Below are positions 6,001-7,666 of a stretch of DNA of 7,666 nt, one piece after another. The DNA is from a virus (Duplodnaviria; Heunggongvirae; Uroviricota; Caudoviricetes): the IMG/VR virus record IMGVR_UViG_2869930542_000005. One strand, written 5' to 3'. The position numbers are program-made. The first letter of the stretch is position 1. Every line of letters begins with the position of its first letter.

Positions 6001-7666
6001 TCACGACCAACGATGATGCCATTCTCTGCCAGCTCCGTCTGGAGCCGCCGGGTTCCATATGTTTCGCGAGTGCGGATATGTGCCACCTTAATCTCCAGTT
6101 TTAGTCGCTCATCACTTTGTTTTCTGTCTGAGGGTTTATGCTGTACCCAGTTGTAATAACCGCTCCTGGATACACCAAATACCTGACACATCGCTTCAAT
6201 GGGAAATTGTTGTCGCCATTGTTCGATTAACGCGTATTTTTCAGCGACTCCTGTGCAAAATACGCTGTTGCTTTTTTTAATATATCTCGCTCAAGGCGAG
6301 CTTCATTTAACGCCTTACGCAGTTGCAGAATTTCAGATTCCAGTTCAGCCACCGTGCGGGAACCAGGAGTACCGAGCCCTTTTCTGGCGGCGGTAACCCA
6401 TTGTCCTAAAGTGCCTTCAGGAAGGGATAATCGGGAAGCGCCTTCACTGATCGAAAGTTGATTTTCAAGAACCATTCTGACAGCTTCGGCTTTGAACTCT
6501 TTAGAGTAACGTTGGGTTTTTCTGCTCATTATTAGCTCCTTCTGATACCATTCTATTTCAGGAAGGAGTGTCCGTTAAACTCAGGCTACCTCAGTCTGTG
6601 TTGTTCTGAGGTGAGCATATCACCTCTGTTCAGGTGGCCAAATTCAGTGTGCCACTTCAATTACTGCTACAGGGACCCAAGGACGGGTAAAGAGTTCGGA
6701 TTAGGCCGAGACAGGAGGATAGCAATCACTGAAGCAATACAGGCCAACATTGAGTTGCTATCAGACAGCGGGCGCGAGTCACTGATAGACAGGATTAAAG
6801 GCGCTGACTCAATCACCCTTCATGCGTGGCTTGACCGATATGAAACAATCCTCAGCGAGAGGGGCATCAGACCGAAAACTCTACTCGACTACGCCAGCAA
6901 AATCAGGGCAATTCGAAGAAAATTGCCGGACAAACCGCTCACTGACATATCAACGAAAGAGGTGGCAGCAATGCTAAATACCTACGTAGCAGAAGGTAAA
7001 GCGGCTTCCGCAAAATTAATCAGGTCAACCCTTGTTGACGTTTTTCGTGAAGCAATAGCCGAGGGGCATGTGGCTACGAATCCGGTAACAGCAACCCGCA
7101 CAGCAAAGTCAGAAGTAAGGCGCTCAAGGCTGACAGCTAATGAGTATGTCGAGATTTACCATGCAGCCGAACCTCTCCCTATCTGGCTGAGGCTGGCAAT
7201 GGATTTGGCCGTCATTACAGGGCAGAGAGTGGGCGATTTATGCAGAATGAAGTGGTCAGACATAAACGACAACCATCTTCACATTGAGCAGGGTAAAACA
7301 GGGGCTAAGCTCGCCATTCCGCTGACGCTAACGATTGACGCGCTCAATATCTCACTGGTTGATACACTACAGAAATGCAGGGAAGCCAGCAGCAGTGAAA
7401 CTATAATCGCATCAAAGCATCACGATCCGCTTTCCCCGAAAACAGTATCAAAGTATTTTACAAAGGCGAGAAATGCCTCCGGACTCTCATTTGATGGAGA
7501 CCCGCCAACATTCCATGAACTGCGTAGCCTGTCAGCGAGGCTATACCGGAACCAGATTGGCGATAAATTTGCTCAACGTCTTCTCGGGCATAAATCAGAT
7601 TCAATGGCGGCGCGGTATAGGGACAGCCGAGGGAGAGAATGGGACAAAATTGAAATCAACAAATGA

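Follow-up and report, generated by a model that had tools for sequence, protein, structure and literature searches.

In lambda integrase (Int), the N-terminal domain (residues 1–64) binds the arm sites (PMC9791396), with arm-DNA contacts made by a flexible N-terminal tail and a three-stranded sheet (PMC2831311). On its own, the C-terminal domain is capable of binding, cleavage and junction resolution but does not carry out recombination, and an N-terminal domain that is unbound to arms inhibits the C-terminal domain (PMC9791396). Shigella genomes, for their part, contain pseudogenes generated by insertion sequences (ISs). IS600 and IS911 are among the five ISs that have expanded in Shigella, and 99% of the IS burden of S. 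dysenteriae is due to IS1, IS2, IS4, IS600 and IS911 (PMC7373316). Of the 78 conserved pseudogenes in that species, 77 are interrupted by an IS, mostly without further mutations (PMC7373316).

The window, by which we mean the whole 7,666-nt stretch of DNA analysed here, is 100% identical to chromosome CP026780.1, and the same locus is found in Shigella dysenteriae Sd197 (CP000034.1) and 1617 (CP006736.1). The integrase reading frame at its downstream end is very probably the dead 3′ part of a lambdoid integrase gene, lying on the attL side of a prophage that sits, heavily decayed, in the yfaT 3′ end of S. dysenteriae type 1, and bearing the marks of an IS911 and IS600 history. The gene and the ORF called over it are located as follows.

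6660–7666, plus strand: HK022/lambda-type integrase gene, 5′-truncated, running from base 2 of codon 23 through the stop codon, with core-binding and catalytic domains intact
6611–7666, plus strand: 351-codon ORF of the gene finders, GTG start; codons 1–16 and the first base of codon 17 are IS911 DNA

When positions 6500–6800 were used as the query, similarity to phage int began at query position 161 in all 140 phage matches listed, that is, exactly at 6660, where the original prediction had placed an abrupt onset at about this position. At its 5′ end, int has lost 67 nt (22 codons plus 1 nt), and the surviving sequence joins at the AT of codon 23. Over its 1007 nt, the remnant is 98.2% identical to the intact int of a prophage in E. 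coli RMDEC465 (locus positions 6000–7006), 95.2% identical to int of Stx1a phages and 94.4% identical to that of HK022. The 18 differences from RMDEC465 int cluster in 6707–6817, and the last 849 nt (6818–7666) differ from this homologue by 1 nucleotide. These identities place the remnant, as judged from its sequence, in the HK022/lambda Int lineage, although two traits that define a working member, a whole arm-binding domain and a start of its own with xis, are missing from it.

Profile searches (Pfam) gave matches of the window ORF to Phage_integrase (PF00589, E = 7.6e-42) and, for the core-binding domain, to Phage_int_SAM_1 and Phage_int_M; the ORF also aligns with PDB entries 2oxo and 1p7d. 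Core-binding and catalytic domain scores are equal in the window ORF and the intact relative. For Arm-DNA-bind_1, the window ORF covers only positions 27–73 of the 74 in the profile (58 bits), compared to 1–73 in the intact relative (96 bits). Consistent with this, in alignments with the PDB lambda Int chains (5j0n, 1z1g, 1z1b and 1kjk), ORF residue 17 pairs with Int residue 23 and the match runs on from there. The altered segment thus falls in the arm-binding domain, as had been proposed. The six catalytic residues, R212, K235, H308, R311, H333 and Y342 in lambda numbering (R206, K229, H302, R305, H327 and Y336 in the ORF), are unchanged when the ORF is aligned with lambda Int. Their retention, together with 335 remaining int codons free of any stop or frameshift, runs against the reading of a dead gene. 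The absence of visible decay in the int sequence fits a recent event, although loss of function is not thereby proved.

The exact 351-residue product is encoded by Sd197, 1617 and two draft contigs, and identical proteins are listed under WP_011378809.1/ABB62493.1 (NCBI) and Q32DW2 (UniProt), where they are named integrase. Start calls are inconsistent across databases, which give either 351 or 339 residues, and the annotation of CP026780.1 uses a GTG at 6647 (339 residues). Gene callers and RefSeq accept the gene, and its frame stays open, with a GTG, through the DNA that precedes int; these observations, too, weigh against a dead gene.

What precedes int is the 66 bp (6594–6659) that separate it from the end of an IS600 copy. 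The original prediction had described an IS end and a 65-bp gap; both are present, except that IS600 ends at 6593 rather than 6594 and the gap is 66 bp long. Nearly all of it is accounted for by the first of the following features.

6596–6659, minus strand: IS911 stub, nt 1–64, consisting of the 36-bp left inverted repeat (IRL, 6624–6659) and 28 nt of leader, ending 8 nt before the orfA start
6608–6626, no strand: palindrome GAGGTGA-GCATA-TCACCTC, in the IS911 leader and the inner edge of the IRL, containing GTG 6611

We searched 5,426 complete E. coli genomes with positions 6595–6662 and found 100% matches to 6596–6659 at 7,732 places in 4,020 of the genomes. Matches occur on chromosomes and plasmids, with up to 24 in a single genome, and such numbers are the signature of a mobile element. 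One match, in E. coli TUM14759, lies directly upstream of a gene annotated as "IS3-like element IS911 family transposase", 8 nt from its start codon. Comparison of the window with two unrelated copies showed identity over 6596–6659 (...GTGTGCCACTTCA) and divergence past 6659, and the outer boundary common to unrelated IS911 copies reads ...CCACTTCA. The 36-bp IS911 terminal repeat, which begins TGAAGTGG, is present. Its counterpart here, the reverse complement of 6624–6659, is TGAAGTGGCACACTGAATTTGGCCACCTGAACAGAG, which is identical to the ends of annotated IS911 copies and, set against the published IS911 right inverted repeat (IRR), TGAAGTGGTCAACAAAAACTGGCCACCGAGTTAGAG (PMC2909936), makes an imperfect inverted repeat. 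With a full IS911 copy as the BLAST query, 6596–6659 was the sole match in the window; orfA, orfB and the IRR of IS911 are absent from it, which makes this a stub and not a mobile element.

Given the identity of all 64 nucleotides to an IS911 end found upstream of IS911 transposases, 6596–6659 can be assigned as IRL plus leader in the minus orientation. The apparent N-terminus of the ORF, MSISPLFRWPNSVCHF(N), is thus the inverted repeat and leader of IS911 read on the antisense strand, in frame by chance. This disposes of two earlier proposals, namely that the integrase carries a different or fused protein N-terminus (the 64 bp are the non-coding left end of IS911, read antisense) and that it abuts the neighbouring IS, since what it abuts is an IS911 stub that has itself been cut by IS600. 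Could the N-terminus instead be a natural variant, or a domain swapped in from another phage integrase, with the IS simply lying upstream? Lambdoid integrases are mosaic, and the clustering of the differences from RMDEC465 int is in keeping with such exchange. However, the 64 bp are 100% identical to an IS911 terminus, 36-bp inverted repeat included, the ORF runs along that element's antisense strand, and the 64 bp are present in no phage or E. coli int. Furthermore, in the 90%-identity cluster to which the protein belongs, the representative and the listed full-length members have 356 or 357 residues. We reject this explanation and see virtually no chance that it is correct. Intact integrases beginning MSISPLFRW would have pointed the other way, and no phage or E. 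coli record joins that N-terminus to int.

The IS911/int junction itself reads CCACTTCA joined directly to ATTACTGC. No phage record carries it in the search with 6500–6800, and in the complete E. coli genomes no place covers at least 80% of that query, so that the junction was not found there either. An exact-match scan of species-representative genomes for the junction (GTGTGCCACTTCAATTACTGCTACAGGGACCC) returned 0 matches, in a set in which Shigella is possibly not represented separately. GTDB puts Shigella within E. coli, and the 0 matches therefore carry no weight.

Because IS copies are repeated, we considered whether the junctions might be artefacts of assembly. Two draft contigs break within the repeat, at 6600 and 6606, and a nested block of IS600 sequence at 4059–6593 was found in one assembly only, CP026780.1, and both points speak for this explanation. 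On the other hand, the succession of IS600, IS911 stub and int is found in three independently assembled complete chromosomes (Sd197, 1617 and CP026780.1), the stub–int junction lies inside the two draft contigs, and the extra complete IS600 bears a clean 3-bp direct repeat, GTC. An assembly artefact is therefore most unlikely. The IS600 block comprises the following parts.

5328–6593, minus strand: complete IS600 (1266 bp, IS3 family), with orfA at 6227–6529 and orfB at about 5330–6191, transcribed away from int
4721–5327, plus strand: partial, inverted IS600, element coordinates 1–607
4059–4720, minus strand: partial IS600, element coordinates 605–1266, whose outer end (4059) abuts phage DNA upstream of ninB
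6594–6596, no strand: GTC direct repeat, which repeats 5325–5327 and flanks the complete IS600

The complete copy bears terminal TG...CA, a 100-residue orfA and an orfB, and its end at 6593 reads ...GGCTACCTCA. Its boundaries were confirmed by an independent copy inside IS1 in Sd197, which matches 5328–6593 end to end at 99% identity, and RefSeq assigns the E. coli homologues to the IS600 family. The sequences flanking the block and its parts are informative. That simple insertion of IS600 into IS1 in Sd197 has a 3-bp target duplication (window 261–263), and the complete copy at 5328–6593 likewise has GTC on both sides. The outer flanks of the block, in contrast, differ: AAC (4056–4058) versus GTC (6594–6596; CAC in Sd197). 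When two IS copies recombine, or an IS causes an adjacent deletion, the usual trace is a missing target duplication, and the outer flanks thus fit an IS600-mediated deletion. Taken as a whole, the flank pattern suggests a rearrangement plus a fresh IS600 insertion.

The GT at 6594–6595 stands where Sd197 and 1617 have the canonical CAC of IS911, giving two forms of the IS600/IS911 junction: CCTCA followed by CACCTGTG and CCTCA followed by GTCTGTG. The CAC at the stub edge in Sd197 and 1617 implies that GT belongs to a strain-specific IS600 rearrangement; CP026780.1, the one assembly with the nested arrangement, has 1.5 more IS600 copies here than Sd197. A simple insertion of IS600 into IS911, with GT as filler, was rejected on account of the CAC in these two strains. 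Insertion of IS600 into IS600 followed by homologous inversion reproduces the nested block and fails on the change from CAC to GT. As a speculative alternative, an intramolecular event could have inverted IS600 1–604 and left an inverted 3-bp duplication, after which a new IS600 copy inserted at GTC; this would explain the GTC/GTC flanks.

The wider neighbourhood runs from an amino-acid ABC transporter through IS1, NUMOD4, Rha/ANT, ORF6N/P22_AR_C, Gp49 with its HTH partner, NinE and NinB to IS600, and from there through the IS911 stub and truncated int to yfaT, a truncated yfaA, gyrA, and ubiG ... nrdA. With NinB and NinE encoded on the minus strand and int on the plus, the order is colinear with that of a lambdoid prophage from which the interval between int codon 23 and a point upstream of ninB has been removed. 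In the source genome, outside the window, similarity to K-12 begins 70 nt past the int stop, within the yfaT 3′ end, and the 70 nt in between can be aligned with the P′ arm of lambda. This puts the attL/yfaT junction 70 nt after the int stop, in agreement with an attachment site predicted just beyond 7666. On the opposite flank, neither attR nor yfaS was found within 10 kb; the far end of the prophage remnant is IS1, beside unrelated chromosomal genes. Searches of the window, and of 10 kb on either side in Sd197 and 1617, turned up neither xis nor the 5′ end of int. That xis is missing, with an IS cluster in its place, had been recognized, but the loss is far larger than was supposed and takes in the entire early, immunity and replication region, up to ninB. 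Lacking Xis, a nearby attR (none within 10 kb) and the phage early region, the remnant most probably cannot excise and is fixed in the chromosome, so the view of a locked-in element holds.

These arrangements suggest an order of events, which we infer from the junctions. IS911 would first have landed in codon 23 of int, its left end turned towards the remainder of the gene. IS600 would then have entered IS911 64–67 bp from that end, at most 8 nt upstream of the IS911 orfA start. An IS600-mediated deletion could next have taken the IS911 body along with xis, 67 nt from the start of int and every early, immunity and replication gene; it would have been an adjacent deletion or the product of recombination between this IS600 and another copy upstream of ninB. 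Further IS600 activity, in the CP026780.1 lineage only, may have added the 1.5 copies. Both the order of the IS events and the mechanism of the deletion are reconstructed here from sequence.

The palindrome over the putative start codon is present, as had been pointed out, and is predicted to fold as a 7-bp hairpin (−13.1 kcal/mol for 6600–6635, z = −2.3). It is conserved in intact IS911 copies elsewhere, and hence is a feature of IS911 and not a regulatory element of int. The GTG start proposed at 6611–6613 is likewise there. No Shine-Dalgarno pairing supports it (+0.9 kcal/mol), and it is part of the hairpin stem; for the alternative GTG in the same frame, at 6647, the Shine-Dalgarno-like match is modest (−5.9 kcal/mol). 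The nearest in-frame stop upstream of GTG 6611 is TAG at 6533–6535, so the frame in the window is indeed open back into IS600, as the original prediction noted, but this openness is not conserved. A 1-nt difference in Sd197 and 1617 puts a TAA 36 nt before the GTG, compared to 78 nt for the stop in the window, and this difference between strains argues against selection on the open frame.

Scanning 6100–6800 with a simple consensus, we found no promoter-like site on the plus strand; the sole sigma-70-like site in that interval runs from 6578 to 6550 on the minus strand. Read-in from the IS, which had been thought possible, is unlikely, as IS600 orfA and orfB and the promoter-like site are all on the opposite strand. 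With no promoter, no ribosome-binding site, a start codon in a hairpin and an IS transcribed away from the gene, the ORF is probably not expressed at a meaningful level. One caveat here is that the consensus scan is simple and that outward-directed promoters are estimated to exist in about a quarter of IS3-family elements (PMC12095673), and hence weak transcription could occur.

This bears on another explanation, in which chance signals in the IS911 or IS600 ends allow low-level production of a chimeric or truncated integrase that acts as a domesticated or rogue recombinase, capable of arm-independent core binding, cleavage and Holliday-junction resolution. Its 351 open codons, intact catalytic hexad and core-binding domain, and near identity to the intact RMDEC465 homologue are all compatible with such a role, as are the in-frame GTG at 6647 with its Shine-Dalgarno-like match, the outward promoter potential often seen at IS3-family ends (PMC12095673), and the ability of the lambda Int C-terminal domain alone to bind, cleave and resolve junctions (PMC9791396). 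That domain alone does not recombine, however, and the unbound N-terminal domain inhibits it (PMC9791396); the remnant keeps the helix part of the N-terminal domain (profile positions 27–73). The scan of 6100–6800 found no plus-strand promoter-like site, GTG 6611 is enclosed in a hairpin without a Shine-Dalgarno sequence, and the upstream frame varies among strains. Finally, IS-made pseudogenes without further mutations are known to accumulate in S. dysenteriae (PMC7373316). Low-level expression of a working recombinase is accordingly unlikely in our estimation, with a small chance of being right.

The reading of a dead integrase fragment also has consequences for any protein that might be produced. 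Loss of residues 1–22 would remove the N-terminal tail and, in terms of structure 1KJK, the first strand as well. Such a protein, even if made, would lack the tail and the first part of the arm-binding region, and we infer that it could not assemble an intasome. It strikes us as very improbable that an IS911–int chimera is translated from GTG 6611 or 6647 to give an integrase whose arm-binding domain is crippled and which escapes control by the arm sites. If it were so, the chimera could act on core-like sequences or resolve junctions, and in this way add to rearrangements in the repeat-rich S. dysenteriae genome.

Collectively, the observation behind the original prediction is confirmed, each of its descriptive elements being present with positions that deviate by one base or less, and its interpretation partly supported, whereas its claim of novelty, a replaced N-terminus, is not. 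The locus holds an ordinary IS-truncated integrase pseudogene that is listed publicly as an intact "tyrosine-type recombinase/integrase" (WP_011378809.1, Q32DW2). These entries deserve a flag as a 5′-truncated pseudogene, with residues 1–16 being the translation of an IS terminal repeat. There is also a lesson of method, namely that when similarity is lost beside an IS, the IS termini should be checked before a novel N-terminus is proposed. The biological weight is small: this is one more case in which IS911 and IS600 have dismantled a prophage and fixed its remnant in Shigella dysenteriae, and a genome-scale description of this process exists already (PMC7373316).

How, then, does the remnant compare with the systems it most resembles? 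Its nucleotide identity to int of HK022 and the Stx1a phages is 94–95% over 1007 nt. The ORF shares 72% protein identity with lambda Int, and the two are alike in their core-binding and catalytic domains and residues; in the source genome, DNA resembling the lambda P′ arm follows the remnant's stop codon. Unlike int of HK022, the Stx1a phages and lambda, the remnant has no codons 1–22, no start codon of its own and no overlapping xis. It is integrated at yfaT, and HK022 integrates at another site. The closest relative in a complete genome is the prophage of E. coli RMDEC465 (NZ_CM177019.1), which occupies the same yfaT site with the same attL sequence. There, an excisionase gene is followed by an overlapping integrase gene of 357 codons and then by yfaT, yfaA and gyrA; the int nucleotide sequence starts ATGGGAAGAAGGCGAAGTCATGAGCGCCGGGATTTACCCCCTAACCTTTATATAAGAAACAATGGATATTACTGC..., and the start of the intact int is also given as MGRRRSHERRDLPPNLYIRNNGYYCYRD. 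The RMDEC465 prophage keeps its early genes, xis and an int of the full 357 codons; in the window, insertion sequences stand in their place. The stub is identical to the IS911 left end at 64 of 64 nt, but it lacks the orfA, orfB and right end of that element. As for the IS-generated pseudogenes of Shigella (Hawkey et al. 2020, PMC7373316), the locus shares with them the same two elements, IS600 and IS911, the same host and the same result, a gene put out of action by an insertion sequence and free of further mutations, and differs from them in nothing material.

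Seventeen of the 18 nucleotide differences between the int remnant and its closest complete-genome relative, the int gene of the intact E. coli RMDEC465 prophage, lie within window 6707-6817 (110 bp), a stretch that encodes the helix and linker of the arm-binding domain. Judged from the sequence comparison, such clustering indicates that this segment has a mosaic (recombinational) origin, rather than being a product of decay. The start of the int ORF (window 6611-7666) differs between gene callers: the annotation of the S. dysenteriae reference chromosomes Sd197 and 1617 gives 351 aa from GTG 6611, versus 339 aa from GTG 6647 in CP026780.1. 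In RefSeq and UniProt, the product is named as an ordinary integrase and not as a pseudogene.

Upstream of int, window 4059-6593 consists of IS600 copies nested in one block (element coordinates refer to the 1266-bp IS600):

4059-4720, minus strand, partial IS600 (coordinates 605-1266)
4721-5327, plus strand, partial IS600 (coordinates 1-607)
5328-6593, minus strand, complete IS600

The complete copy is flanked on both sides by the direct repeat GTC (5325-5327 and 6594-6596). Both Sd197 and 1617 carry one IS600 at the site where the window has the nested block. This arrangement looks like the outcome of some form of self-targeted IS600 transposition together with inversion.

The prophage remnant is bounded at the window's left edge by an IS1:

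1-751 (3389-4920 in Sd197 locus coordinates), IS1 copy, within which the window begins
422-694, minus strand, insA of IS1

The inverted repeat of the element ends at window 751. Inside the same IS1, Sd197 has an additional IS600 that duplicated 3 bp of its target (window 261-263); the strain represented by the window lacks that insertion. Downstream of the window, yfaA of Sd197 is a further pseudogene adjoining the prophage remnant. About 158 codons are left; relative to K-12, the gene has an internal deletion of ∼1.25 kb, and the two alignment blocks overlap by 10 bp (Sd197 locus coordinates 12004-12013).

Within the remnant, the following phage genes survive, along with a pair of overlapping ORFs:

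730-891, NUMOD4
929-1657, Rha/ANT antirepressor-like
1726-2589, ORF6N/P22_AR_C
2643-3351, opposite strand from the phage genes on either side, Gp49-family (HigB-like) ORF and overlapping HTH_3 ORF (Pfam labels)
3348-3569, NinE
3566-3976, NinB

Going by the Pfam labels only, the Gp49-family and HTH_3 ORFs are likely to constitute a toxin-antitoxin pair. The ORF6N gene contains short patches similar to genes that immediately precede xis in the intact RMDEC465 prophage, although in reversed orientation.
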